A stretch of DNA of 64,000 bases from a virus: positions 96,001-160,000 of IMG/VR virus record IMGVR_UViG_3300042731_011014. The stretch is one strand, 5' to 3'. The translations under genes were made by a program, and so were the position numbers. Under the pieces are notes generated by a model. That model searched no databases. It had not been told where the DNA came from and saw nothing but the letters and a program-made list of their open reading frames with translations. The stretch's first letter is position 1; the number at the start of each line of letters is the position of its first letter. Shown piece by piece: positions 35,554 through 61,445 of this stretch.

Positions 35554-35611
35554 TTTAACCTCCAAAAAAAACCTTACGGTATTTGTTCATTTTTAATGCT
35601 TATTAAGCTTT

Positions 35612-36142: not shown

Positions 36143-36220
36143 AAAAAAACCCCTTTACTTTGTCCACGCGGCGGAAACCCCTGATTTCAATCAGGAGAGG
36201 AGCCACCTAACGATTGAACA

Positions 36221-36354
36221 CTATGCATACGAATAACCGTCTATCCGTTGCAATATTTAAAAGCGATACCTTTCTTTAGCAATTCCCTTACACGTGCCGG
36301 ATGGCAGGGCATTAACGGCATTTTGTTTTTGTCTAAAACAAGAGCTTTTAACAT
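36221..36354 (-). pseudogene. iscB: iscB remnant: PLMP N-terminus joined to the C-terminal tail
   Basis: MLKALVLDKNKMPLMPCHPARVRELLKKG-IAFKYCNG* (36354..36241) and, in another frame, ILQRIDGYSYA* (36256..36221). Confidence 0.88.
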
Positions 36355-36591
36355 TGGGAGTTACCTCCCAATTCTCTGCTTTCGCAGGTAAAGGTCACCT
36401 CGGCAAAGTTAATGCACGGTTTTATATGCAAACAGCACTGGCTTAACCCCTTAGACCTGGTGAAGCATTCCAAAGTGCCTATATATTTGCGCTTAACGTA
36501 GCTCAAGAAGTATTGCTCCTTTGCTTAGCCTGGTCAACATAAGGCCTGTTATTTTTCACAAACCTCCGACTTAAAGTCGAGGGCAGTTGAC
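36355..36591 (-). ncRNA. omega RNA / HEARO-like scaffold
   Basis: GTCAAC (36591-36586) can pair with GTTGAC (36538-36533); blocks GTTGACCAGGCTAAG, GAGCTACGTT, ATAGGCACTTTGGAATGC and GCCGAGG; final hairpin ATTGGGAG-GTAA-CTCCCAAT next to the iscB ATG. Confidence 0.8.
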
Positions 36592-36593
36592 AT

Positions 36594-37331
36594 CTATTCC
36601 TTTTGGTGCATATTGTGTTTACCTTCTTTAACTGCCTTATAGACAACCGGATCATTCAAATCTATTTGCCCCTCAACTCTAATAGTTACCGACCATACAG
36701 CTAATCGATTACCTATTTCAGCAAATTCGCTAATATCTGAAAATCCTTCAAGATAAACATCGTATGTTCTGTCCTCATCAAGGCTATCTTTCACGTTAAC
36801 CAACGAATATGGCTGATAAGTTCTTAGGACCTTCTTTAAAATAGCCTGCGTAACTCTCCTGTATTTGGATCGAATAATTATGGTGTAGTTAATATCATAG
36901 GGCCATGCCATAACTTTAGTTTCGTAAGAATCATATCCATTAAGGGTTGTCCCGTCAGGCTTTGTAATCACAACCGGATTTGCACCATCAGCAGGTCTTT
37001 TATACTGCAAACCAAGGGAAGGCCATCTTCCAAGTGCCAAAACCGGCTCACCATTTCTTTGGACCTCAATTGAAGGTAAAACGTGATTTTCAACTGTCGC
37101 CTTCGGATTGGTAAAAGTTATCGGGATACCTGGAGCAGTAGTGCCTGTACTATCAACAGGTAAATCTGATGAACCTAGCCCGGCTATATCGCCTAATGGA
37201 ATTATGTAATTTTGCTGATTATTACCGTCCTGGGACCATCCAAGCAACTGTCCTCCCATAGTAGTAATTACACCCGTATCAAAATCCCTAACCCAAACAT
37301 CACCAGTTTTTTGATCACCAACTAATGGCAT
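36594..37331 (-). CDS. Tail terminator / completion protein (gp15-like)
   Basis: LPSIEVQR...WPYDINYTIIIRSKYRRVTQAILKKVL; upstream of the sheath. Confidence 0.6.
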   Translation of the reverse strand: MPLVGDQKTGDVWVRDFDTGVITTMGGQLLGWSQDGNNQQNYIIPLGDIAGLGSSDLPVDSTGTTAPGIPITFTNPKATVENHVLPSIEVQRNGEPVLALGRWPSLGLQYKRPADGANPVVITKPDGTTLNGYDSYETKVMAWPYDINYTIIIRSKYRRVTQAILKKVLRTYQPYSLVNVKDSLDEDRTYDVYLEGFSDISEFAEIGNRLAVWSVTIRVEGQIDLNDPVVYKAVKEGKHNMHQKE

Positions 37332-41014: not shown

Positions 41015-42184
41015 CTAATGCTTTTGCATTACTTTTCTTATTTCTCCATCGCTTGTTTTATCTATCATATCTGCCAATCTTCTCATGTCAGTTAGTGTTT
41101 TTATGGCTTTTTTGGTTGGTTTTTTTGTTTTTGATGCTTTTATAATCTGCTTGGGGACCTCTAGAATAAGATCCTCAAGGTTAGCATATGAGTATTTCCC
41201 TTTGCTTACAAACCGTGTACGAAATAATTCATCAAAGGGGAATTTCAAAATTCTATATGCCCTATTGTTATGCCAATCCGGATAATTTCCTTTTTTGTAA
41301 TCATTTATAAAATCAGTAATGCCTTTTCTTATCTCGTCATTATCATAACTATCGTCATCTTTTCTTATGTCCAAAAGAACGTCCCCAAGTTTTTTCATAA
41401 AATTAAGAATTTTATTAAAATCAGATTTCCATTCGCTTTTGTCGCCAAGGCCAATGTCAGCTTCTTTTTCGCCGAACTTACTGGCAATTTTGTTAAATAT
41501 AATCATTTGTTTTGGTGACAGTGTCTTGCCGCGCTTAATCTGAGATCTAAACGAATCAATCATATCGTGATCACTATGAGGATCGCCTTTATAGTCGTCA
41601 TCCGGGACATTCCCAAAAATTACATCCTCAATTTTATCGCGGATTTCATTGACCTTTTTGAGCATTTTTTCGTCAACTTTTACATTAAAAAAATCAACAA
41701 CTATCTCAGGCAAAATATTTGGATCTCTTTTAAACTTTTGTTCAACCTTGGAAAAGTTCATTTTAAAGTCACCACCTTCACTTTTTGGATGATCAACTTT
41801 CACTTTTCCATGGTAAACAACACCGCCACTATCAAGGATAGTCATGAATGCATGGTATCTTATCTTCGATTTGGTTTTTCTTCCAAATTCTTTAAGTTGA
41901 ATTTTTTCGGCCACAACAATTGAATTTTTCCCATGATCATGACCCATTTTCTTAGCAATATCAGAAGCTTTTTTAAAATCAGTAGATCTAAAGCTATGAC
42001 GTGAGATATTTTTGCCCGCATTCAATAAAAACTTACCCTGCCTGTCAGATTTCCATTCGCCCTTGTTATTTTTAATGAGGGTATTAACCGATTTATAGAA
42101 ATCAACTATAGCCTCGTCTAATTGCTCAAAAATAAGCGAAGCTTCCCTAATTAGGCTTAATCCATGTTCTAATATTTTACTCAT
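41015..42184 (-). CDS. Leader-bearing putative internal head protein
   Basis: N-terminus MSKILEHGLSLIREASLIFEQLDE. Confidence 0.6.
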   Translation of the reverse strand: MSKILEHGLSLIREASLIFEQLDEAIVDFYKSVNTLIKNNKGEWKSDRQGKFLLNAGKNISRHSFRSTDFKKASDIAKKMGHDHGKNSIVVAEKIQLKEFGRKTKSKIRYHAFMTILDSGGVVYHGKVKVDHPKSEGGDFKMNFSKVEQKFKRDPNILPEIVVDFFNVKVDEKMLKKVNEIRDKIEDVIFGNVPDDDYKGDPHSDHDMIDSFRSQIKRGKTLSPKQMIIFNKIASKFGEKEADIGLGDKSEWKSDFNKILNFMKKLGDVLLDIRKDDDSYDNDEIRKGITDFINDYKKGNYPDWHNNRAYRILKFPFDELFRTRFVSKGKYSYANLEDLILEVPKQIIKASKTKKPTKKAIKTLTDMRRLADMIDKTSDGEIRKVMQKH

Positions 42185-42187
42185 ACC

Positions 42188-42652
42188 TTACTCCATTTCG
42201 GATATGATAGCGGATAAATCGCCTATTATACTCTCTTCTTTTTCCTGCTTCTGATACAATGAACTTAGCCCGTCAGTATTTATTTCGCCTTCGACCTTTG
42301 CGCATGACTTAGGCGAACTGAAGTGCTTACAATTTCCGCACCGCTTATTAGGGTCCTCTGATGTTTCAACATAACTGGCAGTCTCCTTGGACACCTTTCC
42401 TTTCTTACTATCGCTTTTCTTTCTTATACTCACATCAGATTTTTTGTTACTAATATTGGTGTTTCCTTTTTCCTTGTTATCCTCTTTACTTTTTTTAAGT
42501 GTCGGAGGTGGATCAGCCCTGTTGCCATCATCACCAATATTAGCGTCAGCGTCGTTATCCTGATCACTATCTTTGTCTTCTTTTTCGAGAATATATTTCA
42601 CTGTATCCTCAAGAAATTGAAGACCTTCTTTTAATATACTATTGTGTTTCAT
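42188..42652 (-). CDS. Leader-bearing protein with HiPIP-like Cys motif
   Basis: MKHNSILKEGLQFLEDTVKYILE; YVETSEDPNKRCGNCKHFSSPKSCAKVEGEINTDGLSSLY. Confidence 0.6.
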   Translation of the reverse strand: MKHNSILKEGLQFLEDTVKYILEKEDKDSDQDNDADANIGDDGNRADPPPTLKKSKEDNKEKGNTNISNKKSDVSIRKKSDSKKGKVSKETASYVETSEDPNKRCGNCKHFSSPKSCAKVEGEINTDGLSSLYQKQEKEESIIGDLSAIISEME

Positions 42653-42906
42653 AATTTTATTCCTTTTTCTTTTGCTAACGCTCTCAGATCGTCAATACTC
42701 ATATTGTCAAGAATATACGTCTCGTATCCTTTTGATGCATCCATTACCTTATACCTACCACTTATTTTTTTGGCATCGCCGGATCTTTTAAATGCTTTAA
42801 AAATCGCCCTTATAATTTTCATTTTAATATCAGCTTCAACAATCACTGAATGTTTTCTGATAAACTCTAAACCATTTTGAAGAATCTTACCGTATTTCAT
42901 AATCAC
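42649..42906 (-). CDS. Leader-bearing small putative internal head protein
   Basis: MIMKYGKILQNGLEFIRKHSVIVE. Confidence 0.6.
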   Translation of the reverse strand: MIMKYGKILQNGLEFIRKHSVIVEADIKMKIIRAIFKAFKRSGDAKKISGRYKVMDASKGYETYILDNMSIDDLRALAKEKGIKL

Positions 42907-42907
42907 C

Positions 42908-43456
42908 TCACGTATTCATCTTTCTTTCAGGAGTGAATTTAGAATGACGAATTAGCTCAAGGTTGAAACAATCATAAGTTGTACCGGTATCTTTGTCTCG
43001 ATCTATGCTGGTTATATCGAATTTAATACCATTCATTTCAACAATATCGCCTATTTTTGGGACAATTGTTTTGTCAGTAACTTCAGATGTTGCGTTAAGA
43101 GCAGTCTCCCAGTCCCCAAAAAGGATTTTTATTCGGGTATCAAAGGTTTTATACTTACCTTTTTCATCACCTGTTGTAGTGGTTCCAACAAACGCATAGA
43201 AGAAATCAAGCTCAAAACCAAAATCAACCTCTTTGATGTACTCGTTATTGATTGGTTCGTCATATAGTGGATCCCTGACAGTAGTGGCAAGATTTAGAAC
43301 TATGTATCGACCGGTAGTCTTTCCGGCCATGTCGCTTAGATCTATGTATTTATCATTAAGGCCAAAGCTTTTCTTAGTATCCTCAATCTCAGATATTATG
43401 TTTGTAAAAAACGCGGCTTCACGTTCCTGACATTTTGGCTTTGAGTCACAGCTCAT
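42908..43456 (-). CDS. Putative head closure (gp14-like) protein
   Basis: DPLYDEP and PKIGDIVEMNGIKFDITSI; position downstream of the gp13-like gene. Confidence 0.45.
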   Translation of the reverse strand: MSCDSKPKCQEREAAFFTNIISEIEDTKKSFGLNDKYIDLSDMAGKTTGRYIVLNLATTVRDPLYDEPINNEYIKEVDFGFELDFFYAFVGTTTTGDEKGKYKTFDTRIKILFGDWETALNATSEVTDKTIVPKIGDIVEMNGIKFDITSIDRDKDTGTTYDCFNLELIRHSKFTPERKMNT

Positions 43457-43457
43457 A

Positions 43458-43871
43458 CTATCCCCATCTTATTCGGCCACCAAAGCACTTGACAAGGTGT
43501 TCAAGGTGTTGCCTGGCCTCTTGTAATGGTGACATTTTTGGTTTTCTAACAGGTTCAAAATCATCTTCCTCGATACTGTAGTTGATCAAACTTTCGTCAT
43601 CATCAACGCCAGGTACACTGCAAAACATATCTATTTCACTATCAATCTCAGGACCACCTAACCCAAGCATCATATTACTAGTTCCACCACCTCCTTTAAG
43701 TATAAGATCCTCAAGCGGTGTACCCTGCATCTTAGGAGGAACAAATTGCTCAACCATTTTTTGCTTTTTCGACCTAGCAGGTTTACGTGCCTGTGGCGAT
43801 TGTCGTCTTGGTTGTTTTTTATTTGGAACCTTACATATACTAATGATTTCATCCATAAAGTTACTCATCAT
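43458..43871 (-). CDS. Hypothetical protein
   Basis: 137-aa ORF coupled to its neighbours. Confidence 0.55.
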   Translation of the reverse strand: MMSNFMDEIISICKVPNKKQPRRQSPQARKPARSKKQKMVEQFVPPKMQGTPLEDLILKGGGGTSNMMLGLGGPEIDSEIDMFCSVPGVDDDESLINYSIEEDDFEPVRKPKMSPLQEARQHLEHLVKCFGGRIRWG

Positions 43872-44446
43872 CTGCCCCTTTTTAGATCTCTTTCTATTCT
43901 TCTCTGCGTGCTTCGTCTTAGTGGTGACTTCTCTTTTTTGGGGACTTTCTTGCTCTTCTCTTTTTCCTTGCCTTTCTCCGCTTTGGCTTTTCTCGCTTCT
44001 TTACCTTGCTTTGTTCCGGTAGCCCCTCCAGATTTTTTATCATCATCTTTTTTACCCCTATTTAGACGTTTCAAGTATCTATTATACTCACGCTCAAACC
44101 TAAGTGTCATAAAATTGTAATGCGAAGTTTTTCTAGCGCCGCCACGCTCAAACGCATGCTTAAAATCACGTCTTACACCGCGCTGTGTTCGCTTCATATC
44201 CGAGACTTTCCCTTTATGGGACCCTCGTTTATAGAACGCTGATAAGCCATCCTTATGATGGTGCCAGGGTTTTGTCATAACATGTCTGCACATATTCATC
44301 GCAGCAAAAGCCCTGGTACCTTTTTTAGGTTTGAACTTTCTGTTTTTATAAACAGCCAAGGTGCAGTGTTTAATGAGCGTAGGTGCCTGTTTTAAATCCG
44401 ATTCACCAGCTTCAGCTAAAAGATGTTTTATACTAATAAGTTTCAT
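43868..44446 (-). CDS. Highly basic protein, possible DNA-binding core protein
   Basis: Lys/Arg-rich throughout; N-terminal HLLAE/A. Confidence 0.55.
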   Translation of the reverse strand: MKLISIKHLLAEAGESDLKQAPTLIKHCTLAVYKNRKFKPKKGTRAFAAMNMCRHVMTKPWHHHKDGLSAFYKRGSHKGKVSDMKRTQRGVRRDFKHAFERGGARKTSHYNFMTLRFEREYNRYLKRLNRGKKDDDKKSGGATGTKQGKEARKAKAEKGKEKEKSKKVPKKEKSPLRRSTQRRIERDLKRGR

Positions 44447-45332
44447 TTATTACTTTAGCCTTTTCAAATTTATACCTTCCAAAACAATCAAAACCTTGAG
44501 TATTAAAAATCTTTTTAATCTCCGGTCTTACATTTTCAGATCTATCAACTATCCAAATACACTCTGTACGTTCTTTATCAATGCTAACTTCTTTTATTTT
44601 AGAAGCGAATATTTTAACTTCAAACCTGATAGTAAACCATTCATCTGGAACATAGTTGTTATCATATCCTGATAAAACGAATGAGCCCTCTGCATTATTA
44701 AGAGCAAGGATAAGGTTTTTATAATAGCTATCGTCAATTTTAAATTCATAGTTCTGATCAGTGCCAATATATGGCGGGTCACAATAAAATAAAGTTTGCG
44801 GACTGTCCCATTTTTTAATTATATTAATAGCATCATCACATTCAATATAAACACTCTGCAATCTATCAAGTGGACTTTTTAATCTGTTATTCCCATTAGA
44901 CCAAGTAACACAATGATTTTGAGTAAATAAACCAAAACCCCATCCGCCATTTTCTATTTTTGCAAATGATTGATTTATATTAACATAATACGCCCATGCT
45001 TTTTCCAGATCGCTAGCGCCATTAGGATTTTTACATATTTCTACAGCCTTTTTATGTTCAGCCTTAGAGTATGGAGTAAGTTTTAAATGCCTTATTAATT
45101 CTTCACCATCATCACTACGTAGCACCCTAAAAAAATTAACTAAAAGCTCATTTTTATCGTTAAGAACTTCACGATAGTGAGTACTGTTAGTTATCATAGG
45201 TAGTGGTTTTGTAAAAAATACTGCTGCACCACCACAGAAAGGCTCTACATAAACAGTGTGATTGGGGAAATACTTCACAATTTTCGAAGCTATACGCTGC
45301 TTGCCACCATAATACGAAATAGGAGTTTTCAT
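44433..45332 (-). CDS. dam: DNA adenine methyltransferase (D12/Dam class)
   Basis: ISYYGGKQRIA, YVEPFCGGAAVFF, LNDKN, FYCDPPY. Confidence 0.92.
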   Translation of the reverse strand: MKTPISYYGGKQRIASKIVKYFPNHTVYVEPFCGGAAVFFTKPLPMITNSTHYREVLNDKNELLVNFFRVLRSDDGEELIRHLKLTPYSKAEHKKAVEICKNPNGASDLEKAWAYYVNINQSFAKIENGGWGFGLFTQNHCVTWSNGNNRLKSPLDRLQSVYIECDDAINIIKKWDSPQTLFYCDPPYIGTDQNYEFKIDDSYYKNLILALNNAEGSFVLSGYDNNYVPDEWFTIRFEVKIFASKIKEVSIDKERTECIWIVDRSENVRPEIKKIFNTQGFDCFGRYKFEKAKVINETY

Positions 45333-46876: not shown

Positions 46877-48358
46877 CTATGGCAGGTTAGAACAAGTGAT
46901 TAAACCATAGTACTTATTGTTAACTAATTTTTTCGCGTAGCGTGTCCGCATCCCCTTCCTGAAGTTTTGGTCATCAGGGTCGAGGAATGTTGGAGTAACC
47001 TGTAAGGGCACATAAGGCGCATACACCATTCCTGAATCCAAGAATGTTGGTCCCTTTAGGCCTATCATGATTTGATCATCTGGGAATAGTGGATCAACAT
47101 AAACAGTCCATCGGTTTTGTAACACGCCTAGGCCATATACACCGAATCCTGACGGCGACGTTGGAGGTTGAGGTGCGGGTTGACCAAGGGTCCCTTGACC
47201 AGCCGGCATACTTCCACCATCAAAAACTGATTTAAAGCTACCATGAGTCTCCATGGCGCTAAACAAGGATGCAGCCCGAGTGCTTGTAACAATCCAATTA
47301 CCCGGACCACGCAAGGTTTGCTTACCGACTTCCTGGGAAACCTTGGCAATCTTGGTTAAAAGAGTCATGTAATGCTCTACTGGGCTATAGCTTAAACCAG
47401 ACACATCCGCATCAAACGATTCCTTGTTTGTACCAGCGGCAGCACCTAAATACATGTCCATAATTAGCTCACGGTCGATTTCCAGAGCCAGTTCTGATGC
47501 TACACCACCAACTAACTCCCCTTCAGCGTCCATACCGTGTATGGCTTTTAAATCATCGGCAGCTTCAGCGCTCCACAAGAATTTCAGCTTCCGGCTACTT
47601 ACCTTGATTGGGTCAAGGCCGATATCCAAATAGACTTGAGGCACGGTAACATTTGCCCCTTCCATATCGAAAAAGTAGTTAGCGTAGATAGGAGCTTTGT
47701 CATCTACATTACCATCCCAGGTAATATCATAGGCACCATCCGAGTAAGTAATCGTTGATGCTGCACCAGTATCACCAGCTAAATCCCCACTTCCGTCGGG
47801 ATCATAGATTCTTTTGGCTGCGGTTCCAACCAGGGTTGTAAACTCAAGACCAACTTGGGCTTGCGGACATGAAATAAAAGGTTTTACAGGTGTCCATGAA
47901 AGGTTACCAGTGTAATTCGCTGTCGCACCATTACCGGTCGCGATAACTTCGTGATAGATATACTCTGAAGAATAATACCTGTCGAAGTTCTCGATCATAT
48001 TGTCGCCAGCTGTAATTGTTCCCTTGGAGGTACCGTATTTGTACTCCCAAGTGAAAATGCCTCCTATAGGGCCAGTCATTGGTTGTATAGAAACGAGATT
48101 GTTAGCAATTAAGTTCGGCCATACCCTACGAATCATAGGGAAGACGAACTTCACGAAATCAGCGAAGTTACCTGTGGTTGTATTTTCACTGAGGTTTCGG
48201 ACATGCTGCATTTGATTTTCGAATAAAATAGCCGTGGCTGCCCTACGATAGGGTTCATGGATACCTTCTAAAAGGGGTGCCCATTTTTTAGTTACAGCTG
48301 CGACAAAACTCTTATTTTGAATTGAACGGGTTTCGTTCATTATTTCTCTGGCTTCCAT
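46877..48358 (-). CDS. gp23: Major capsid protein (T4 gp23-like)
   Basis: FPMIRRVWPNLIANNLVSIQPMTGPIGGIF; SRKLKFLWSAEAADDLKAIHGMDAEGEL; YAPYVPL; TRYA. Confidence 0.97.
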   Translation of the reverse strand: MEAREIMNETRSIQNKSFVAAVTKKWAPLLEGIHEPYRRAATAILFENQMQHVRNLSENTTTGNFADFVKFVFPMIRRVWPNLIANNLVSIQPMTGPIGGIFTWEYKYGTSKGTITAGDNMIENFDRYYSSEYIYHEVIATGNGATANYTGNLSWTPVKPFISCPQAQVGLEFTTLVGTAAKRIYDPDGSGDLAGDTGAASTITYSDGAYDITWDGNVDDKAPIYANYFFDMEGANVTVPQVYLDIGLDPIKVSSRKLKFLWSAEAADDLKAIHGMDAEGELVGGVASELALEIDRELIMDMYLGAAAGTNKESFDADVSGLSYSPVEHYMTLLTKIAKVSQEVGKQTLRGPGNWIVTSTRAASLFSAMETHGSFKSVFDGGSMPAGQGTLGQPAPQPPTSPSGFGVYGLGVLQNRWTVYVDPLFPDDQIMIGLKGPTFLDSGMVYAPYVPLQVTPTFLDPDDQNFRKGMRTRYAKKLVNNKYYGLITCSNLP

Positions 48359-48409: not shown

Positions 48410-50014
48410 TTATTCTTTTTTAATTCCTGACAGATCAACTAAAGTATCTATTCCTATTCCAAACAAATCGCCTTCATCCAGCTTTTTTGCTCGGGTATCC
48501 GAATCTATGGAAGTATCATTTCTCCCCTTACGAAGAGATCTAGTGATACTATTATACTCTTCACTTACAGGATTATTATCATCGTATTCATCAATGATAT
48601 CATTAATCTCTTGCTGATTATTTGCAGCACCGTTCGAAATTGCACCCTCAATAATTTTGCGAACCCTTAATTTGTGCGGGTGATCCGAAATCTTGCGCTC
48701 CACATAAAGTTGCAATGCAAGCTGTCGAGCTGCTATATGAGCCTCAGTTACACTCTGTGATAATTTGTCATTATCATCTTTGAGCTTCTGAACTTCCTCA
48801 GTAACAGCACGTTCGGCCTCCGATTGCTTCTTTACCTTGTTGATAACCAATCTGACTGATTCCTCAAGCTCACTGATTGATTTAAACCTCATTATGTCGC
48901 CAATGTTATTTTTGACAACTTCAAGATTCTCATCAATCTCATTAACTATATTAGTCAAATGATGTTCAAATCCAATCCGCTTTGCAACGTTCATGTAATC
49001 GTCACGTTCTTTCTCAAGAGCCTCAACTTTTTCCTTGAGTTCACTGCTAACTTTCTTAAGTTGTTCCTTAAGATCTGAGATCTCCTTTTCTCTTTGACTA
49101 ACGAGATCGTTAACATCCTCAGGTAAAAGATAAGGAATGAGTTTTTTTGCAATATCTTCCAGTGTTACTTTGGCTCCAGCTACACCAGGATCACTTAGTA
49201 GCTCGCCGCGCACTTCTTCCTTTGCTTCACTCTTTATCGTCCCTACTTTATCTTCAAGCTTCTTTGCAAAATCCTGCTTAAGATTGTCTTCTATTTCCTT
49301 TTTAAGCTCTTCCTTTGTCTTATTGCTCTGCTTTTCGATTTCTTCCTTTGTTTCCTTCACTGCCATTGAGACAATGTTGTTATATAATTCAGGATATTTC
49401 TTTCTAAATTCCTCAATTGTCATGTCTGAATCTCCATCACCCTCTTGGGTCTGATTATGTTTTTGTTCGTTTACACCAGTAACATTGTCATCGCTGCTAG
49501 TTTCCTCTTTAAAATCAGGATACGAATTCACCGCAGCTGGATCTGCAACGAAATCAAATGTTATTAGGTTATAATCCTCTTGTACAATGTCATTGCCAGA
49601 CCCATCAGGTCTAGTGGTGCCCCAACCTCTGCTAGAAACTCCGACCTTGCCGCCAGACCCAACAATAGCCTTAAGTTCCTTGCCCTTAGAGGTATCCATA
49701 ACCAGTGCTTCACCATAAATTTCACCATTTGGTTTCATTTGAAGCTTAGTGATTCTATGACTTGATCGAGATAGTTTTGTTTTACCATCCCCAGGATGAT
49801 CGAGTTCACCATAAACAGTATTTTCTTTAATAGCGCTTTGCTTTTTATGTACCTCACGCTCCATTAATTTGCGCTTGTACACTCTCTTATTTGCTGTAGG
49901 CGTATCACTTAAGCCAAATCTACCTTTAGCTATTAATCTGGTATTACCAGCGGATTCCTCAAGAACATTAATGCTGACATTGGACCATTCATCAATTAGT
50001 AAGACCTTATCCAT
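48410..50014 (-). CDS. gp21: Prohead protease (gp21-like) fused to a scaffold-like coiled coil
   Basis: NKRVY, GELDHP, SHRI, GVSSRGWG and FDFVADP, followed by about 350 aa of charged helix. Confidence 0.9.
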   Translation of the reverse strand: MDKVLLIDEWSNVSINVLEESAGNTRLIAKGRFGLSDTPTANKRVYKRKLMEREVHKKQSAIKENTVYGELDHPGDGKTKLSRSSHRITKLQMKPNGEIYGEALVMDTSKGKELKAIVGSGGKVGVSSRGWGTTRPDGSGNDIVQEDYNLITFDFVADPAAVNSYPDFKEETSSDDNVTGVNEQKHNQTQEGDGDSDMTIEEFRKKYPELYNNIVSMAVKETKEEIEKQSNKTKEELKKEIEDNLKQDFAKKLEDKVGTIKSEAKEEVRGELLSDPGVAGAKVTLEDIAKKLIPYLLPEDVNDLVSQREKEISDLKEQLKKVSSELKEKVEALEKERDDYMNVAKRIGFEHHLTNIVNEIDENLEVVKNNIGDIMRFKSISELEESVRLVINKVKKQSEAERAVTEEVQKLKDDNDKLSQSVTEAHIAARQLALQLYVERKISDHPHKLRVRKIIEGAISNGAANNQQEINDIIDEYDDNNPVSEEYNSITRSLRKGRNDTSIDSDTRAKKLDEGDLFGIGIDTLVDLSGIKKE

Positions 50015-52254: not shown

Positions 52255-55200
52255 TTATGCTACTTTTTTGTAGCTGATAGCTTCCTTAATCTCGCGCATG
52301 AGGATCCTTAGTTCTCTAACACCTTTATTGAGTTCTTTGTTTGAATTAATAATATTTAAAACCTGGTCTTTTGACACATTCTTATCTCTGCCTGAAGTAA
52401 GTCTTCTTTCAAATCTGCGTCTTAATTGCTTTTTAACAACTTGAAGGTCCTCTTGAGGAACGTTTTCTGCTGGCTTTTCGGCCGGCAATTGTCCACTCAT
52501 TGATATTTTAGATCTGATTTTATCTTGCCTACCTTCAATTGATGCCATTCTTATAGCATCCTCAACACGATGATCTAAGATATCCTCAATTTCTGAGTTA
52601 GTCATGCCGAAAATGTTTTCCATAATCCATCGTTGTGATACCCATTGTTGCATAGAATCGGCTAACTGTGCTCTTTGATTTCTCACTTCCATTTGGGCCA
52701 TTTCAAAAACAGCGCTCGGGACTGTCATCATGACATTAAAATTAACAGATGATGGGTCAAGGCCTTTAGCCGCAAGATGGACACGTCCAATTTGATGGAA
52801 TCCAGTTTTAAGGACCCTTTGGACCCTCAGTATTGTACGCGCAAATCTAACATCTTCCTGGGAATTATGAACAAAAACTCCGCATTCCGTAGCAAAATTA
52901 TGATAACCATCAACAGTCATATCATAAGTATCAATAACAGGGCCTTCTCTAACTTCAACAACCTTATGATTTCTCCCCTTTTTTATCGCGGTAGCAGTAG
53001 ACCTACTCATGTACTTCAGCATGTACTCATGTGCAAAATCTGCGTACTTGATGCCATTTTCTGAAAAAATCCTATTAAGTAAACACTCACTATATCCGGA
53101 CCACTTAATAAGCTCTTTTTTACTTTTACATCTATAACTTTTTGCAACTTCTATTAGATGTTCAATATTTGCATCAGCACCTGGACTATAAACCTGCTCG
53201 TAATCTTTTAACTTTTGTGCCCTACCAATACCAGAAGCATTTCTCCTATATAGAGGCATTAGTGAATCCTCAGGTTTTAAATCTATTGCTTCTCTATAAG
53301 ATCCGTCTCTCATCATAATAGGATGATCTGGCGTACAAGTTAAAATCTCCCCGTTATCAAGAACAACTTCCACTGTTCTGGTTTTTTTCTTAGTTAAACG
53401 AGCATTTTTTGCTAGACCAGGTACAATATGACCATCATCATTACAAGAGTAAACCCAAAATGGCTTGCTTCTTTTTGAAAGATTCTCAATTGTTTCAGAT
53501 GTTCCATCCAATAAAGGAATCATTGTATTGCCAGCTAAACACAAGGTGGCTCGTGATATTGTTTCCTCATACCCAAGGTAAGCCCTAGGAACTTTTATTG
53601 CTGCATACAATTTCATTCTAAAATAATCAACGTCATCAATTCCCTGGTACATACTACCCTGAAGCATGTCAATCCGCGTACTATCTTTTCCACTACGTGT
53701 TGGAATCCAGAAATCCTCATCTTGAGAATTCTTTATGAAAATACCAGCCGTTAACGCAAAATTATGATATTTTTCAACAGTTAAAGTATAAGTATCTTCA
53801 CACTGTTCAATGTATTTAACTGAAACGACTTTATGATTATTCGATGATGCCCATTTTTTAAAAGATTTGAAATTGTCAAAACCTTTTTCCCTATACATTT
53901 TTAACATTAAATGTCTATGAACTTTCTTTGACAAATTTTCCTGTTTAAATAAATCAATCAATCTGGAATTATTGACATAATTTACAACATCTTCTGCGCT
54001 AACATTTAAATTGTTGGCCACATATGATTGAACGCCAACGAAAAAATCATCAGAAAACTTAATTTTTCTTTTTTCAGAAAAAGCTACTCTGTTTTCCTCG
54101 TTTTCCCAAAATTTCTTTTTATTTTCTGACCGCTTAACATTGTCTTGCTCATGTTTACATGAATTATTATAAGCTATTATGTACTTTTCTATCTTATTCC
54201 AAGCTGAAATATTTGCAGATGACACCTTTTTTAGTTTTTTATCCAAAACAGGATCGGATAACCTTATCTGAGACATAATATGACCAATATTATGACCATT
54301 ATCACGATGTATTATACTATGTTCGCTTTTTTTCATAAAAGACAAATTATCGGGAGAATTATCAGTTTTTATAAAATTTTCATGATGAGTTACACCATTT
54401 TGCTTCAATTCATCTCTAACCATACGATGGGTGTAAATATATTTTTTTGTTTTTGGATCATAAACCATCTCGTACCCATCTATTGAATAACCCTTATCCT
54501 TTGACGAAATAAGAGTTTTGTATGGCATAAGAGAATCACCAGATTTTAAATATCTTGCTTCACAATATTTCCCATCTCTTTTTATAAATTTATGATCTGG
54601 GGTAGTCCTAATTGTTTCACCATTATCAAGAGTTACCTCAACAAGTTGTGCCATTTTTCGGGTTTTTCCTGCCCAAACTATTTTTCCTGGAACAATTTTC
54701 CCACTATCAGATCTATCAACAGAATATACCCAGTTCTCTTTTCCTCTGTTGAATTCGCCAACAAGGTTAACTATTGGGATATCTCTGCCATCAAGTAACG
54801 CTATTTTTGTATCACCGGTCAAACAAAGAGGATTGTACTTCATATTCAAAGTACCATCTGAGTTGACAAACTTGCGTTTTTTAAACTCATTTCGCATTTG
54901 TCTGACATGAGCGGTCGCCTCATCGGCATCCATGTCACCCGTATCAACGTAGAAAGCAAACCTTGTAGGAGCCCTGGTAAGTCGGTAAACAAGCATCGCA
55001 TCCTCAAGGAGAACTAATCGTTTCCAGATCCATCTTGCGGGCTCGAGCACGCTATTGTGAACAACAATACCATCTGAAACAAAGCAATGTCCGTCATCAG
55101 CAACTTCTATGTCATAAACCTTTTCAATAATACTTGGTTCTTTAGAAACTATTTTTTCTGAAAAAAAATCATTATCAGAAATATTTTCTCTAAAGAATGA

Positions 55201-57975
55201 CAACAAATAACTGTCTCCACTATTTATTTCTTTACCATTTATTATAGATTTTTTATCTCTCGGCTTACGCGGTCTAATGTTCCCAGATATCCATCCTAAT
55301 CCATCTATAACTGTTTTAATATCAGCTAAAAGATTTTTATTGCAAAGCTCAGTGTGATTATATTCTCCTTTTTTGGTTATCCACCCGTCGGCCTCCATAA
55401 ATCCATCTATCATCGCTGTTCTGATACTTTTTGGAGCATTATAAACCCAATATGGCACTCTTTTGTTTCTTGCCCTATTAATCCACCCTATTTTAATCAT
55501 TAGATCAGATAATCTTTTTGAACTGACATTAATCGTCCTGCTTATTCCATCATCTCCTCTGCTGACTTCTCTGACATTTAAACCAATACTTCTTAAGTAA
55601 TTTTCATAAAATATATTTCTTTCTTCATATACTCCAAGGTGTATAATTATACACCCGTTTTCAATTGCACCATTACCAAGCATATACCCCCAAAACTTGG
55701 CAAATCTATGATCTATAAAATCTGGCAAAATCAATGAATCATATTTTTTCTGCTCAATAGAGTCATAAGTAAATGGTACTCTAATGGAACTAAACAATTT
55801 TTTTGCACTATCAAATGACAAAGAACTTTTACCATCTAATAATTCATCAAGCTTTCCTTTAGTTATCCCAATATCTTCGGCAAATCTTTTCAATCCATCA
55901 AATTTACTGGAATATTTACTTATTTTTGCACAAGTTTTAAGCGAGTTAATTCCACGTTTACTTAAAACAAATTCAGATTTAGAATTAAACTCATCTAATA
56001 AAAGGCCAAGTGGAATATTATTCTTTGTTTCTGGGCAATTACTAACGCACATTATTTTATCATTAGGAGACAAATCTTTAACCTGAACCCACGTATTTCT
56101 CCCTGGCTTTTTATCAACTAAAACAGGATGTTCGCCAGTTAATATTATTTCTCTATGTGCTGTTTTTAACTTAAAGGTTTGCTTTTCCCCACTACAAACA
56201 TGATTCAGTACTTTAGTTTGTCTAAGTAACCCTGCGTGTCTAGTAAAAACACTATCGCCTGGTTTAATATCCTTAATGAACTTCACACCATCTGGGGTCC
56301 AAACCCTTGATTCACCTGATAAACAATACCCGTACTTACTCTTTCTCATTTTTGATCTAAGACGGAAATGAGCAATCTTCCATGGCTCATATAAAATGGT
56401 ATTACCATCCTGGGATGCCATTGCACCGTTTGGCATTTCAATGCCAAAAACAGATTTATCAATTTTAAAGTCACCTGAATAAGATTGTGCAAACCCCAAT
56501 ATTGCACCGGTCCCAGTTTCAAACCTCCTAATCGTAGCTGATGGAAGGAAATTTAATCCCTGAACACCATCATCGTTAACCAGTATCTCTTCATAATCAC
56601 TGCCATATTTGCAAACTGTTCTAGATATCTCCCAAATATTGTCTTCAGCTCTTATTTTGTTGTCATACATATCGGTAAGATCTGTTTGAACATTATCATC
56701 CTCGCATTCAACCCACATAGATCGGTTTTTTTCACCATCAGTTTGTGTTGAATCGTCTGCATATATATCGAGAGCCGAATTGTGAACAACTACTCCATTG
56801 CAAACAAAATTATGATATTTTGGGACTTCAATATCATACACATCGTAAGATTCGCTAATTCTTATAACATTAACCACTCGATGATTTCCAACATCAGAGA
56901 TGAGATCGAATTCTTCTAGCCTGCGTTTCAGTACGCCAAAAGATACGCCTAGCTTTTTTGCTGCCTCAGTTATACTACTTGATGACATATAAGCAGCTTC
57001 AACCTCTTCCCTGCTAAGCTTTATTTTATGCCCTTCAGCTATCTTGCGCTTGTGCTCTTCTGATAGTTTTTTGTCTGTTAACGGCACTCTCTGCTTTTTA
57101 TCTGTTTTCCTTTGATTTGGATGTTTTGTTCCAAGCATTTTTCTAGAGCGCTCTTTGCGCAATTCATCTGTCCATTCTGGAAAATACTTAGTTGTATCGT
57201 GACTTTCGAAATTATGCTTTCTGGCATGAGAATTATGGGTTTCTAGACTAAGGTTGTCCAAACTATTATTTAAAGGGTTGTTGTCTTTGTGGTGGACAAC
57301 CTCCCCTTTTTTTCTTTCCAAAAGCTCATTAGCGACCAATTTATGAATCCAAGTCCACCTTTTCCCGTCACTTTCTCTTATTGATTCTGGTGATGGTTGG
57401 TGGACTTGCCAATATTCGTTTTTACTCTTAGGAGTTAATTTTCTAGTTCTAAGTGCCCCTGGCATTAATCGTGTACCAGGTTTTAGTTCGCCAGCTTTTT
57501 TCCAAACATTAATTTTGGTTAAAAACAAATGATCATCAGTACATGTAATGCTTTCGCCATTATCAAATAAAACTTTGACCATTTGTTTTGGATGACCTGC
57601 CTTGCCTGTTATACGTGCATTTTTTGCTTTTGCAGGTAATAGAGATCTTCTTAACCTGTTATAAGAAAGAACATGAAACTCTCCTCCTCTCTCTGCAAGT
57701 TTTTTAACTTCAATCCAACCATCTTCTATTGTAAAAATCTTACAACATCCCGTAATACAAGAAAGATCTGGGTAGTCATCCATATTTTCATAATCGACAT
57801 AGCGACTCATAAGATCATGATCTAATTGCAAATAATCGGCTACTGAGTCAAATCCGAACTGCATAAACAGGTTGAAATCTTTTTCGCCAGCCTGAGGAAG
57901 ATCGGACCGAGAAACCTCATTTTCTCTTTTGAAAATATTTCTTACATATCCAGCAATTTTATCACTTATTGACAT
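52255..57975 (-). CDS. gp20: Portal protein (T4 gp20-like), 563-aa extein plus four inteins
   Basis: Extein motifs ALDIYADD, IAHFRL, YGY|SVLEPARWIWKRLVLLEDAMLVYRLTRAP, |SQDEDFWIP, DDVDYFRMKLYAAIKVP, |SQEDVRFARTI. Confidence 0.95.
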   Translation of the reverse strand: MSISDKIAGYVRNIFKRENEVSRSDLPQAGEKDFNLFMQFGFDSVADYLQLDHDLMSRYVDYENMDDYPDLSCITGCCKIFTIEDGWIEVKKLAERGGEFHVLSYNRLRRSLLPAKAKNARITGKAGHPKQMVKVLFDNGESITCTDDHLFLTKINVWKKAGELKPGTRLMPGALRTRKLTPKSKNEYWQVHQPSPESIRESDGKRWTWIHKLVANELLERKKGEVVHHKDNNPLNNSLDNLSLETHNSHARKHNFESHDTTKYFPEWTDELRKERSRKMLGTKHPNQRKTDKKQRVPLTDKKLSEEHKRKIAEGHKIKLSREEVEAAYMSSSSITEAAKKLGVSFGVLKRRLEEFDLISDVGNHRVVNVIRISESYDVYDIEVPKYHNFVCNGVVVHNSALDIYADDSTQTDGEKNRSMWVECEDDNVQTDLTDMYDNKIRAEDNIWEISRTVCKYGSDYEEILVNDDGVQGLNFLPSATIRRFETGTGAILGFAQSYSGDFKIDKSVFGIEMPNGAMASQDGNTILYEPWKIAHFRLRSKMRKSKYGYCLSGESRVWTPDGVKFIKDIKPGDSVFTRHAGLLRQTKVLNHVCSGEKQTFKLKTAHREIILTGEHPVLVDKKPGRNTWVQVKDLSPNDKIMCVSNCPETKNNIPLGLLLDEFNSKSEFVLSKRGINSLKTCAKISKYSSKFDGLKRFAEDIGITKGKLDELLDGKSSLSFDSAKKLFSSIRVPFTYDSIEQKKYDSLILPDFIDHRFAKFWGYMLGNGAIENGCIIIHLGVYEERNIFYENYLRSIGLNVREVSRGDDGISRTINVSSKRLSDLMIKIGWINRARNKRVPYWVYNAPKSIRTAMIDGFMEADGWITKKGEYNHTELCNKNLLADIKTVIDGLGWISGNIRPRKPRDKKSIINGKEINSGDSYLLSFFRENISDNDFFSEKIVSKEPSIIEKVYDIEVADDGHCFVSDGIVVHNSVLEPARWIWKRLVLLEDAMLVYRLTRAPTRFAFYVDTGDMDADEATAHVRQMRNEFKKRKFVNSDGTLNMKYNPLCLTGDTKIALLDGRDIPIVNLVGEFNRGKENWVYSVDRSDSGKIVPGKIVWAGKTRKMAQLVEVTLDNGETIRTTPDHKFIKRDGKYCEARYLKSGDSLMPYKTLISSKDKGYSIDGYEMVYDPKTKKYIYTHRMVRDELKQNGVTHHENFIKTDNSPDNLSFMKKSEHSIIHRDNGHNIGHIMSQIRLSDPVLDKKLKKVSSANISAWNKIEKYIIAYNNSCKHEQDNVKRSENKKKFWENEENRVAFSEKRKIKFSDDFFVGVQSYVANNLNVSAEDVVNYVNNSRLIDLFKQENLSKKVHRHLMLKMYREKGFDNFKSFKKWASSNNHKVVSVKYIEQCEDTYTLTVEKYHNFALTAGIFIKNSQDEDFWIPTRSGKDSTRIDMLQGSMYQGIDDVDYFRMKLYAAIKVPRAYLGYEETISRATLCLAGNTMIPLLDGTSETIENLSKRSKPFWVYSCNDDGHIVPGLAKNARLTKKKTRTVEVVLDNGEILTCTPDHPIMMRDGSYREAIDLKPEDSLMPLYRRNASGIGRAQKLKDYEQVYSPGADANIEHLIEVAKSYRCKSKKELIKWSGYSECLLNRIFSENGIKYADFAHEYMLKYMSRSTATAIKKGRNHKVVEVREGPVIDTYDMTVDGYHNFATECGVFVHNSQEDVRFARTILRVQRVLKTGFHQIGRVHLAAKGLDPSSVNFNVMMTVPSAVFEMAQMEVRNQRAQLADSMQQWVSQRWIMENIFGMTNSEIEDILDHRVEDAIRMASIEGRQDKIRSKISMSGQLPAEKPAENVPQEDLQVVKKQLRRRFERRLTSGRDKNVSKDQVLNIINSNKELNKGVRELRILMREIKEAISYKKVA
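52864..53541 (-). mobile_element. Intein 4 (226 aa; no recognisable endonuclease)
   Basis: L|CLAGNT ... FATECGVFVHN|S. Confidence 0.92.
53728..54825 (-). mobile_element. Intein 3 (366 aa, HNH type, ends Lys-Asn)
   Basis: L|CLTGDT ... THRMV...THHENFIKTDNSPDNL ... FALTAGIFIKN|S. Confidence 0.92.
55054..56325 (-). mobile_element. Intein 2 (424 aa, LAGLIDADG/DOD type)
   Basis: Y|CLSGES ... WGYMLGNG ... IDGFMEADG ... GIVVHN|S. Confidence 0.93.
56779..57759 (-). mobile_element. Intein 1 (327 aa, HNH type)
   Basis: S|CITGCC ... WIHKLV...VVHHKDNNPLNNSLDNL ... GVVVHN|S. Confidence 0.92.
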
Positions 57976-57978
57976 ATC

Positions 57979-60012
57979 TTACCCCATTATGATCGAAGGC
58001 ATTATTTTCTTAGGTTTGCCCGGTTTCCCTTTTGGTTTCAAATTCTTATTTCTAACAACCCAATCGTATTCTCTCATACTTCCACTGATTGGCTCAATGC
58101 TTTTCATTATTGGCAAAGGCATTCTCATTGGCACTGTAGTTAACCCATAGCATACACCGCACACCGCATCAGATATATCCTTACTGCCTTTATCAAGGTG
58201 ATCGATTTTTCCGGTCGTTTCATCATCAACCAGTCCTTTTAGTTCCTGAATCAATGGAGCATACCTGTAATAAACAATCCTATTTTCATACAACGCCTCT
58301 TTTAGTATTTTATACGGATCTTTTGACCTATCAACACTAACTATTTCAGCCTTGTATCCTTTCTTGACTAATTTCTGCTTTGATTCTATCGATTGAAACG
58401 AGTCCATTGATACATATCGGATTGGGTAACCCATCTCTGTTAAAATGTAAACTAGCTGCCTACCGGTTCCCAAATCAATCTCATCATCTTGGGGCGGAAT
58501 AATTCTTATAGCAAAATCAATAACAATAACAGGAGCTTTCTCTGATGTCATTTTACCCGTTGATTTATCGCGTCTACTTACATTAACCATGCCAGATACA
58601 TGGCCCATAGCAAAACCAGTGGCATCTCCAGTAAGTGATGGATCGATATGGACAAATCTTGGTGACTTCGGCGATATGATAGGTCTAATTTTTCCATTAC
58701 TATCTGGTGCCACCATAAGCCTTCTATTAAAAGCAATAGGTAAATTTGGGTTCCATTCGATAACATCAGTCGGATGAGCCATATTATCGTTGATTGCTTC
58801 AAATATCTTTTCCCTACGAACAATAAATGGCCTAACTGCCATGGTGGCAATTCCGGCCATATCGCGCAAAGCATCATCAATGTCTTTTTCGAAATCAAAA
58901 CGGAAGTCCTCAGGTACCTCTATAATAGTGCACCCTTCGTCTTCCATTTCCTTAGTCATTTCAAAATCTTCGTCTTGATCTAGTACTCTTGATCTTTGCG
59001 CATCAACGCCAACAAATACCTGAAATCTATTTTTTGAAAACCGTTCGGGCGGCTGAACGTCCCAAATTGCATAATCGCGAACAAATAAAGTTGGATCATC
59101 CCTGGACTCAAGAATCCTTTTTTGGGTAAAATCATGCTCAGTTTGTTTTGACGAAGGAAGTAAAAGAATACCGGGTAACCTACCGGTCCGACCGAACCTT
59201 GATCTCATTCTTCTGATAACGGAGTTGTAAACCAAACTAGCGTCGTCAATAATTCCATACTTTGCATGGGCAGCCTTTTCTTGCTTAGTTCGGCGTCCAC
59301 CTTTAAAGTTTGACTCATCGATCACACCACCAAAAATATTTAATCCAAGGGACCCTGTCCTTGCACTGGACAGTGGTGCAAGCCAAACGTTTTTAGGGAA
59401 CCTAATTTCACTGCTAGTTATTTTAGGATCAAAATGCTCTTTAAAATATGGCGAACAAACAAGCATTGCAACAACACCTGTGAATACAACTTTTTTAGCC
59501 ATCTTCTCAGTAACATGATAATTAACAATAGCTATCTGCTGATTCTCGGATTGGCCGTAGCTTTTTTGAGGATTCCTAAGGCATGATATCTCATAAAGCA
59601 TTCGGCATATTGCAAGGTTGGAGAAAAAAGTTTTCCCCCACCCTATTGCACCGGTAAGTATTGCTTCGTGATATGGGCCACTAAACATCTCGATAAAATC
59701 TTTCTCAAGCTGAGGCCATAATTGGTTGCCTGTATCACCCATGTAGTAGGGATCGTGAAGCCAGGTCTCAACATCAACTACCTCCCTTTCATATTCAGCC
59801 TCCCGGTATATATCGACTATTTTGAATTCTTCTTTCCTCCCGTACTCGTCGATATATAACTTACTATCATCCGTTGCCAGCTCCTTTAACACTTCCCTTA
59901 AGACTTCTATCTCATTTTTAGATAATCCAGCTATTGCCTTCGTTATCTCTTCGACACGTTCCCTGTCCGTCCTCTCGCTTTTGAACCTTCCATTATTTAC
60001 AACAACAGCCAT
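57979..60012 (-). CDS. terL: Terminase large subunit
   Basis: Walker A LTGAIGWGKT; Walker B GGVIDE; nuclease FVHIDPSLTGDATG, SMDSFQS, IDHLDKGSKDISDA. Confidence 0.92.
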   Translation of the reverse strand: MAVVVNNGRFKSERTDRERVEEITKAIAGLSKNEIEVLREVLKELATDDSKLYIDEYGRKEEFKIVDIYREAEYEREVVDVETWLHDPYYMGDTGNQLWPQLEKDFIEMFSGPYHEAILTGAIGWGKTFFSNLAICRMLYEISCLRNPQKSYGQSENQQIAIVNYHVTEKMAKKVVFTGVVAMLVCSPYFKEHFDPKITSSEIRFPKNVWLAPLSSARTGSLGLNIFGGVIDESNFKGGRRTKQEKAAHAKYGIIDDASLVYNSVIRRMRSRFGRTGRLPGILLLPSSKQTEHDFTQKRILESRDDPTLFVRDYAIWDVQPPERFSKNRFQVFVGVDAQRSRVLDQDEDFEMTKEMEDEGCTIIEVPEDFRFDFEKDIDDALRDMAGIATMAVRPFIVRREKIFEAINDNMAHPTDVIEWNPNLPIAFNRRLMVAPDSNGKIRPIISPKSPRFVHIDPSLTGDATGFAMGHVSGMVNVSRRDKSTGKMTSEKAPVIVIDFAIRIIPPQDDEIDLGTGRQLVYILTEMGYPIRYVSMDSFQSIESKQKLVKKGYKAEIVSVDRSKDPYKILKEALYENRIVYYRYAPLIQELKGLVDDETTGKIDHLDKGSKDISDAVCGVCYGLTTVPMRMPLPIMKSIEPISGSMREYDWVVRNKNLKPKGKPGKPKKIMPSIIMG

Positions 60013-60025
60013 TTATTCACCGTTT

Positions 60026-60742
60026 CTAATTATCATTTATCCATATACGCTCTATACTTTTTTTGAACTTATTACCACTACCGTGATTGATGTATATATT
60101 TTTGAAGTCAAGCCAATCTACCCCAGGCCCCTCGCAAACAATAACTTGTCCACTTCTCGTTTTACACCATTCAGCTAGTCTTTTATAATCCATATTGGTT
60201 AAATTGCAAATATAATACTTATTATTAATATAGGGAGGATATATAAACCAAGTAACTTTCATTGGAGGTTCAACTACAGAATAATCATTACAATAAACCT
60301 CCCAGTGGTTTATTTTATTAACTTGATTTGCAATCTTTTTTCTAGTCAATTCTGACCAAAAGCCGCATACATTAGCATTTGATTCAGCAATTGCGGATTT
60401 TACAAGTGATTTTTTAGGCTTTATGCAGTTTTTGTTTAACCAAAAACCAATAAAATCTTTTTCAGCATCAGATAATGTTTTTATGTTATCTATCTTCTCT
60501 CCTCTATTTAATAGAGGCAAACTAAGTATATCGTTTTTGTTTGCCTCTATTAAATATTTCCATACTCTATATACTCTAAAATATTTTTCAATAAGTACTA
60601 TTTTCTTATCGTAATATAAGGTAGAGTAACCCGCAGATCCGGCAAATGGTTCAACTATCATATCATACTTAGGTTCAGGATATTTTCCTGCCTTACACCA
60701 TTTGGAACCAAAATAAGAAAAAAAAGGAGCTAACCTACTCAT
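60026..60742 (-). CDS. DNA adenine methyltransferase paralog with an altered catalytic motif (YPPY)
   Basis: Start moved to MSRLAPFFSYFGSK (overlaps the upstream stop); EPFAGSAG; WFIYPPY. Confidence 0.8.
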   Translation of the reverse strand: MSRLAPFFSYFGSKWCKAGKYPEPKYDMIVEPFAGSAGYSTLYYDKKIVLIEKYFRVYRVWKYLIEANKNDILSLPLLNRGEKIDNIKTLSDAEKDFIGFWLNKNCIKPKKSLVKSAIAESNANVCGFWSELTRKKIANQVNKINHWEVYCNDYSVVEPPMKVTWFIYPPYINNKYYICNLTNMDYKRLAEWCKTRSGQVIVCEGPGVDWLDFKNIYINHGSGNKFKKSIERIWINDN

Positions 60743-61445
60743 TAATCCAAACCAATTCCTTTGTTCTACATCTACTTCCTTCCGTATTACATAAATAAGT
60801 AAAAGGAAGCCAGTCAGCAGATTCGTTCTCGCAAACAATAACTTGACCCTCTCTTGTTTTGCACCACTCAGCAAGTTTTTTATAATCTGAATCCAATAAA
60901 GGACAGACATAACAGTAACCCATTTTTTTATATGGTGGATCTATCAACCAGGTGGCTTTAAATGGCGGATCAGCTATTGAATAGTCGCCTAAATAAACTT
61001 TCCAATGATCTGTCTTATAGATATTTTTAGCTAACCTTTTTCTTGTTAGCTCACTCCATGATCCACACTGTCCCTTATTATTTGTCTCTATTGCACGAGG
61101 TGATAGATAATTTTTTGGTTTTTCAGTTCCCCTATTAATCCAAAATCCTATAAGATCTCTTTCTTCATCTGATAGGTACTCAATATCTCTTATATTTTGA
61201 TCTCTTTCCACTAAAGGAAGGTTTAAAATATCCTTTTCTGTTGCTGAAATAAGATACTTCCACAATCTAGCTATGCGGAAATATTTATCAATTAGAATAA
61301 TATTTTTTTCCCAATGTAACGTTGAGTAACCTGCCGCTCCGGCCAACGGTTCAATTATTACATCATGTTTTGGAGGTGGGTATTTGCTAGATATCGTATT
61401 CTTGCTTCCAAAATAGGAAAAAAAGGGGGGCGTCTTGTCGCTCAT
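60735..61445 (-). CDS. DNA adenine methyltransferase (short D12-like)
   Basis: FFSYFGSK, EPLAGAAG, WLIDPPY. Confidence 0.88.
   Translation of the reverse strand: MSDKTPPFFSYFGSKNTISSKYPPPKHDVIIEPLAGAAGYSTLHWEKNIILIDKYFRIARLWKYLISATEKDILNLPLVERDQNIRDIEYLSDEERDLIGFWINRGTEKPKNYLSPRAIETNNKGQCGSWSELTRKRLAKNIYKTDHWKVYLGDYSIADPPFKATWLIDPPYKKMGYCYVCPLLDSDYKKLAEWCKTREGQVIVCENESADWLPFTYLCNTEGSRCRTKELVWINE

Follow-up and report, generated by a model that had tools for sequence, protein, structure and literature searches.

Four inteins in one gp20-type portal precursor of a metagenome-derived phage

More than 100 homologues of the portal protein described here are 550–640 aa long and contain no insertions, which raises the question of what fills its own reading frame of 1906 aa and whether a portal subunit can still be made from it. 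This frame (1906 aa plus stop codon; 52255..57975, minus strand) was recognized by Pfam Portal_T4 and Intein_splicing matches in a window of 64,000 nt, the whole stretch of DNA analysed, which corresponds to positions 96,001 to 160,000 of IMG/VR record IMGVR_UViG_3300042731_011014. All coordinates below are those of the window, and all segments of the portal frame lie on the minus strand. We consider it highly probable that the additional length consists of four bona fide class 1 inteins, that is, selfish homing elements whose site-specific lineages are old, and that all four must splice for the portal to be formed.

The portal precursor and its genomic setting

The 5.7-kb portal frame is fully open, with zero internal stop codons. 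In Pfam searches the whole ORF matched Portal_T4 (PF07230) at 4.9e-51 (174.3 bits vs. a cut-off of 22.9) in four collinear stretches, and Intein_splicing at 2.4e-56, likewise in four stretches. Among the PHROGs, the portal family PHROG 213 matched the ORF at 1.1e-45, and several HNH families matched it too. When the boundaries were read at the junctions, each of the four insertions was found to start with Cys (Cys1), to end with Asn and to be followed by Ser (Ser+1), which confirms to the residue the Cys...Asn|Ser-bounded insertions of 327, 424, 366, and 226 aa proposed in the initial annotation. Together these inteins, designated I1 to I4, make up 70.5% of the ORF, in agreement with the earlier estimate of about 70%, and their G+C content is 0.335 vs. 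0.397 for the exteins.

The five exteins add up to 563 aa (72 + 151 + 76 + 62 + 202). Extein 1 (aa 1–72; 57760..57975), which ends with ...DYPDLS, extein 2 (aa 400–550; 56326..56778), and extein 4 (aa 1417–1478; 53542..53727) were delimited by junction reading and by the portal profile described below. Extein 3 (aa 975–1050; 54826..55053) is the best-conserved portal segment (LLEDA...RAP...YVD.G), and extein 5 (aa 1705–1906; 52258..52863), starting with SQEDVRFAR, comprises the C-terminal part of the wing and the crown. The portal profile was built from 95 sequences, i.e., 94 intein-free homologues and the joined extein of this portal, and has 599 positions. In order, the five exteins span its positions 1–597 collinearly, so that removal of the four inserts restores a complete portal. 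The colinear, gp20-like product of 563 aa expected in the initial annotation is thus recovered.

The source genome, that of an uncultured T4-like phage, is a metagenome-derived IMG/VR record of 177,890 bp. All Portal_T4 matches in the genome fall within this one frame, so there is a single gene for the portal, the DNA-entry ring, with no spare, and the virion would depend on four splicing reactions per subunit. As the record is a metagenome-derived contig classed as 'linear', such a frame might be thought to come from a chimeric assembly or from a defective phage with a non-functional portal. We regard this as extremely improbable, because the frame is intact and keeps every catalytic splicing residue, because the identical portal protein is on record from two contigs, and because dozens of independent contigs have homologous inteins at these four sites; the CheckV completeness of 100% also argues against it.

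The surroundings of the gene are those of a head module. On its 3′ side in the coding direction lie a prohead protease (48410–50014) and a gp23-like major head protein (46877–48358), and on its 5′ side an intein-free 677-aa P-loop protein (57979..60012, minus strand), which is a putative large terminase (terL) on the basis of its motifs and ESM Atlas clusters. This protein has Walker A (GAIGWGKT) and Walker B-like motifs and falls in ESM Atlas viral clusters with PF27249 (MJ0330_N P-loop); some related clusters carry inteins. No terminase match was obtained for it among the PHROGs, Pfam, and PDB sequences, nor did it match the annotated TerL of Flavobacterium phage immuto, and searches of the whole genome with PF03237 and PF17289 gave no terminase match. 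The earlier statement that terL has no intein stands insofar as the 677-aa protein shows no Hint match; the part that names this protein terL is to be read as putative.

Elsewhere in the genome, six further inteins were found in a ribonucleotide reductase and two helicases, giving approximately 10 inteins in all. Three of these interrupt the class II ribonucleotide reductase, a ResIII helicase has two, of which one lies within its GxGK|T P-loop, and the last is likewise within the P-loop of a DnaB-like helicase.

Splicing residues and nuclease modules of the four inteins

Scanned singly, I1 (aa 73–399, 327 aa; 56779..57759), I2 (aa 551–974, 424 aa; 55054..56325), I3 (aa 1051–1416, 366 aa; 53728..54825), and I4 (aa 1479–1704, 226 aa; 52864..53541) matched Intein_splicing (PF14890) with 66.2, 41.1, 68.4, and 57.5 bits, respectively, at a cut-off of 35.8. 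I1, I2, and I4 end in HN|S and I3 in KN|S. Each of the four has Cys1, the block B TxxH motif (TDDH in I1, TGEH in I2, TPDH in I3 and I4), the terminal Asn, and Ser+1, and these residues are conserved in the alleles. By in-frame insertion, collinear flanks, Hint domain, and terminal residues, I1–I4 have the sequence characteristics of class 1 inteins. We propose that the gene is expressed as a 1906-aa precursor of the phage's only gp20-type portal, with four independent class 1 inteins. Each of them, a Hint domain, would excise itself after translation by an N–S acyl shift at Cys1, transesterification to Ser+1, cyclisation of the terminal Asn, and an O–N shift. Joining of the five extein pieces would then give the 563-aa portal subunit, and with twelve subunits per ring 48 splicing reactions would be required per virion.

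I3 is non-canonical in that Lys replaces the usual His before the terminal Asn and Thr occupies block F position 4. The Cys1-type alleles of I3 share this Thr, and their terminal Asn is preceded by Lys or Cys, so the combination looks like a working variant; across all I3 alleles the residue before the terminal Asn is Lys, Cys, or His. Class 3 inteins have no N-terminal nucleophile and carry Cys at block F position 4 together with Trp B:12 and Thr G:5 (PMC5222942). Assignment of I3 to this class was rejected, as I3 has Cys1 and its F:4 residue is Thr, not Cys (TYTLTV). The I3 site (extein position 299) holds alleles both with and without an N-terminal nucleophile: P-, A-, or S-initiated alleles found there in relatives read YCMTV, with Cys at F:4, and the full Trp/Thr signature is absent from them.

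The nuclease kinds given in the initial annotation, two HNH, one LAGLIDADG, and one intein with no clear nuclease, hold with refinements based on HNH_3, LAGLIDADG_3, and the allele alignments. The HNH motifs of I1 (nt 57214–57300, followed by an HTH-like stretch) and I3 (nt 54307–54393) look intact. In both, the HH...N...N...H..H pattern is complete and in register with the alleles; the Pfam HNH_3 profile matches I1 at 1.3e-6 and I3 weakly, at 0.012, below the cut-off. Judged by these motifs, the two nucleases appear to be intact.

I2 aligns with the solved LAGLIDADG inteins of archaeal V-ATPases, and its Pfam match to LAGLIDADG_3 is weak (0.068). It has two LAGLIDADG motifs, at nt 55663–55695 and nt 55378–55413. 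The first reads GNG, with Asn768 (codon AAT at 55672–55674), and is GDG in 16 of 18 alleles; the second retains its Asp. The motif-ending Asp of LAGLIDADG enzymes binds the catalytic metal, and from its replacement by Asn in motif 1 we infer that the I2 nuclease is either crippled or no more than a nickase. I4 gave no nuclease match in Pfam. It is devoid of a 156-aa HNH-bearing segment that a full-length allele (375 aa) at the same site has kept, and it retains a C-terminal helix-rich stretch (nt 53020–53154). The nuclease states of the four inteins suggest successive stages of the homing cycle, with the I1 and I3 nucleases apparently intact, I2 short of one catalytic Asp, and the HNH module of I4 deleted.

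Insertion sites on the portal structure

A failure of the joined extein to align with portals had been named beforehand as grounds for giving up the portal assignment. The joined extein aligns with gp20 portals collinearly, with approximately 24% identity to T4 gp20 overall and strong conserved blocks, among them LLEDA..YR.TRAP and (S)..ED(F/Y)W. The alignment of the spliced product with T4 gp20 (PDB 3JA7, PMC4493910) extends over wing, stem, clip, tunnel loop, and crown; the spliced product differs by a longer C-terminal tail. T4 gp20 itself is intein-free, yet it has Ser or Thr at three of the four equivalent +1 positions (S97, S329, T397).

Mapping of the sites onto gp20, as the initial annotation had advised, placed the I1 site at about V96|S97, the least certain of the four positions in this 24%-identity alignment, the I2 site at about Y253–R256, the I3 site at M328|S329, and the I4 site at I396|T397. 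With the T4 portal domain limits taken from PMC4493910, the I1 site falls in the N-terminal part of the wing. The I2 site marks the boundary between wing and stem, where helix α5 begins, and is three residues before the stem helix; the I3 site belongs to the clip domain and precedes the inner clip loop (R338, K342) by ten residues; and the I4 site coincides with the last residues of the tunnel loop (374–398), before the bent helix α8. We also used an AlphaFold model of P0021, a homologue without inteins; the mean pLDDT of the model is 69.9. In the PDB it matched T4 gp20 chains best (E 2e-19, TM 0.44–0.63), values that refer to the homologue and not to the joined extein. In this model the I1 site lies within a helix, the I2 site three residues before the long stem helix, the I3 site five residues before a clip strand, and the I4 site one residue before a long helix.

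Since inserts of 226–424 aa would sit in ring-building and channel-lining parts, we infer that the precursor is incompatible with a working dodecamer; unspliced subunits are probably unable to form a working ring. If this is so, splicing must precede assembly.

Inteins across the portal clade and in known systems

A search with extein 5 yielded 16 homologues of at least 1048 aa, all of them with intein domains, and 147 shorter ones, with inteins in 14 of the 120 listed. A profile made from 44 intein-free portals retrieved 94 proteins of at least 1109 aa, the longest of 2794 aa, with PF14890 in every one. Inteins were then counted with our own HMMs of the N- and C-terminal intein blocks. Among 215 collected proteins, a set biased to long ones, one intein was found in 18, two in 55, three in 25, four in nine (this portal included), and six in a single portal, P0202 (2794 aa). 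A fairer estimate comes from an exhaustive, length-blind search of 1.84 billion cluster representatives. In the best-scoring 150 representatives of the clade, we counted no intein in 44, one in 59, two in 30, three in 14, and four in three; inteins are thus carried by 106 of the 150 and two or more by 47, with the caveat that intein-bearing forms may be over-represented as a result of clustering at 50% identity.

The 245 inteins that we mapped on the portal alignment occupy approximately 30 insertion positions, some adjacent ones of which may represent one split site. The four sites of this portal rank among the most popular in the clade, with 47 cases at extein position 72 (I1), 41 at 299 (I3), 21 at 223 (I2), and 18 at 361 (I4). 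These data bear out the proposal of an intein hotspot in the portal of this lineage. Multi-intein portals, whose commonness had been named beforehand as grounds against the proposal of the initial annotation, do prove to be common in the clade. The four-intein portal described here is extreme in degree, with four inteins filling 70% of the ORF, and is not unique; by kind it is ordinary, a phage portal with class 1 inteins whose nucleases are of the HNH or LAGLIDADG type.

Such portals have 2–5 times the normal length and are often left unnamed or labelled just 'intein/homing endonuclease' in annotations. No match to the portal gene was obtained by Megablast among 50,697 phage records. The tblastn matches were confined to distant portals and to a 484-kb uncultured phage without annotation (GenBank LR756508.1), whose 1386-aa portal has three inteins. 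A single-sequence scan of IMG/VR with the portal returned two loci only.

The closest relatives of I1–I3 are same-site portal inteins of other metagenomic phages, with 38–52% identity over the full length. Those of I4 also occupy the same site and are 40% identical over the full length, or 59–68% over the first ~125 aa. Between sites the similarity is distant. It unites the HNH-type inteins of sites 72, 288, 299, 327, and 361 in one group and the LAGLIDADG-type inteins of sites 127, 132, 178, 223, and 248 in the other. For this reason we discarded the view that any of the four inteins was recently copied from another. Divergence among the intein alleles roughly matches that of the exteins and so does not demonstrate recent homing; in the nearest portal relative, a partial protein, sites 299 (I3) and 361 (I4) are empty. 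Variable presence among relatives, together with nucleases in different states of decay, points to selfish elements, and each intein would be an old allele within a site-specific lineage that occurs in many related phages.

The occupied and empty sites seen among related phages would also suit a role in competition, in which the intein nucleases cut the intein-less portal genes of co-infecting relatives and exclude their markers to the advantage of the carrier phage, the inteins being kept by selection at the phage level. The complete HNH motifs of I1 and I3 are in line with this, and nuclease genes have been described to mark the boundaries of genetic exchange between phages (PMC10448857). 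However, I2 with its damaged nuclease and I4 without one persist nevertheless, and such exclusion would be a by-product of ordinary homing that is hard to separate from the selfish-element explanation. We therefore consider this role unlikely.

The initial annotation went further and suggested that the four splicing steps gate head assembly, with redox state, temperature, or metals timing the appearance of the mature portal. The portal starts head assembly in T4, and all four nucleophiles are Cys1, a residue sensitive to oxidation and zinc in other systems. Zinc is reported to inhibit splicing of the DnaB intein reversibly (PMC7360933). In addition, I1 begins with CITGCC and so has two extra cysteines, but neither is conserved in any I1 allele, and a redox switch operating through them was dropped. 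A built-in checkpoint should be conserved, yet relatives differ freely in the number (0 to 6) and the sites of their inteins, the nearest one lacking I3 and I4, and nuclease modules at differing stages of decay are the pattern of selfish elements. What speaks for the gate is the generic sensitivity of Cys nucleophiles; the proposal thus finds no support in our data, and we regard it as very unlikely. We also think it quite improbable that the gp20-type portal is the most intein-dense family known (about 30 positions, up to six inteins, class 1 and class-3-like inteins at one site) and that its four-splice chain has been co-opted as a timer or quality gate or as a weapon.

Selfish homing elements of old lineages, all of which have to splice, remain our preferred explanation of the four inteins. 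A precise 12-mer ring protein that is made only after four self-excisions per chain would be a demanding natural test of the speed and fidelity of splicing. The portal clade as a whole is a large natural experiment in intein biology, with many sites in one small protein, two intein superfamilies (HNH-type and LAGLIDADG-type) that each extend over several sites, and every stage of nuclease decay. Its compact nuclease-less alleles may serve as parts for protein engineering.

Portal inteins are no longer to be regarded as unusual, as they have been published for portals of other families: six in cluster C1 mycobacteriophages (Kelley et al. 2016, PMC5050341) and 14 in SPP1 Gp6-like prophage portals (Novikova et al. 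2016, PMC4760082), and they are known in actinobacteriophages generally (bioRxiv 10.1101/2025.01.02.630785). In common with our portal, these cases feature homing-endonuclease inteins of polyphyletic lineages in an essential portal gene. They concern portals of other kinds (POG1190; COG2369 SPP1 Gp6-like/Mu F; InterPro IPR009279), whereas the present one is of the T4 gp20 type (PF07230), and the accessible portions of these accounts mention no multi-intein portal, in contrast to the four inteins in one polypeptide seen here. In the open-access literature, which omits most subscription journals, we came across no account of gp20-type portals that contain inteins. As far as we could find, this clade is a very rich intein hotspot that has apparently not been described.

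Four inteins in one protein, as in the ribonucleotide reductase of Trichodesmium erythraeum (Liu et al. 2003) and archaeal MCM (PMC10710043, PMC2874743), were the published maximum before five were reported for Anaeramoeba Prp8 (PMC10710043). Like our portal, these proteins contain independent inteins at separate conserved sites, in full-size and nuclease-less forms. They are, however, cellular enzymes of replication or RNA processing, in contrast to a dodecameric structural protein of the phage virion, and the six inteins of the related portal P0202 exceed the published maximum of five.

Among phages, the crAss-like (Delta/Zeta) and Jug phages offer the nearest parallel, as their essential late and replication genes are likewise full of self-splicing elements (PMC7886860, PMC12880540). 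According to the accessible portions of the same two sources, TerL of crAss-like phages can carry two inteins, and the host genes named for the crAss-like and Jug phages are those of TerL, MCP, PolB, primase, RNAP, nrdD, and DNA polymerase, not the portal. These sources give up to three inteins per genome for crAss-like phages, vs. approximately 10 in the 178-kb phage described here.

Genes adjoining the portal

The portal gene is adjoined by a P-loop protein of 677 AA (window 57979-60012, minus strand), which is probably the large terminase. A terminase match for this protein was found in none of Pfam, PHROG and PDB; in the ESM Atlas it grouped with viral PF27249 (MJ0330_N) clusters, and inteins were present in several of the related clusters. 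A homologue of the prohead protease is encoded on the minus strand at window positions 48410-50014, matching PHROG 207 over residues 3-418. With 534 AA, it is much longer than its T4 counterpart, gp21. DNA methyltransferase-like genes (PHROG 56; window 44433-45332 and 60026-61445, both on the minus strand) lie inside the head and packaging module and flank the portal region on both sides.

Inteins elsewhere in the phage genome

Besides the four inteins of the portal, about six others were observed in the same phage genome, beyond the window, in genes at loci L010-L012 (G000:C1:60140-65935, 33214-36987 and 42018-44471). A class II ribonucleotide reductase carries three of them (aa 138-494, 567-904 and 1039-1403). 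A ResIII helicase carries two, of which one is inserted in the P-loop (GxGK|T), and a DnaB-like helicase has a single intein, with GVGK|C as its insertion point. This brings the total, including the portal, to approximately ten inteins in the 178 kb.

Portal inteins of relatives

At the I3 site (extein position 299 of the joined portal), homologous inteins of many relatives (portal homologues P0094, P0148, P0176, P0157, P0007, P0011 and others) carry an N-terminal Pro, Ala or Ser (PVAHDTP...) in place of Cys. Their block B reads APDH, and YCMTV places a Cys at block F position 4. They show a class-3-like pattern, without the complete Trp/Cys/Thr signature. Thus, a single site is home to both class 1 and class-3-like alleles.

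The portal of an unannotated 484-kb uncultured phage (GenBank LR756508.1; L001:2710-6870, 1386 aa) contains three inteins. Two are mini-inteins, separated by 13 residues and located at and just past the I2 site; the third, a 458-aa intein of the HNH type, is inserted at extein position 358, about three residues upstream of the I4 site (361) of the present portal. Six inteins were observed in portal homologue P0202 (2794 aa, from a 154-kb contig; aa 77-234, 295-640, 730-1164, 1190-1631, 1684-2054 and 2118-2528), which exceeds the published record of five inteins per protein (PMC10710043).
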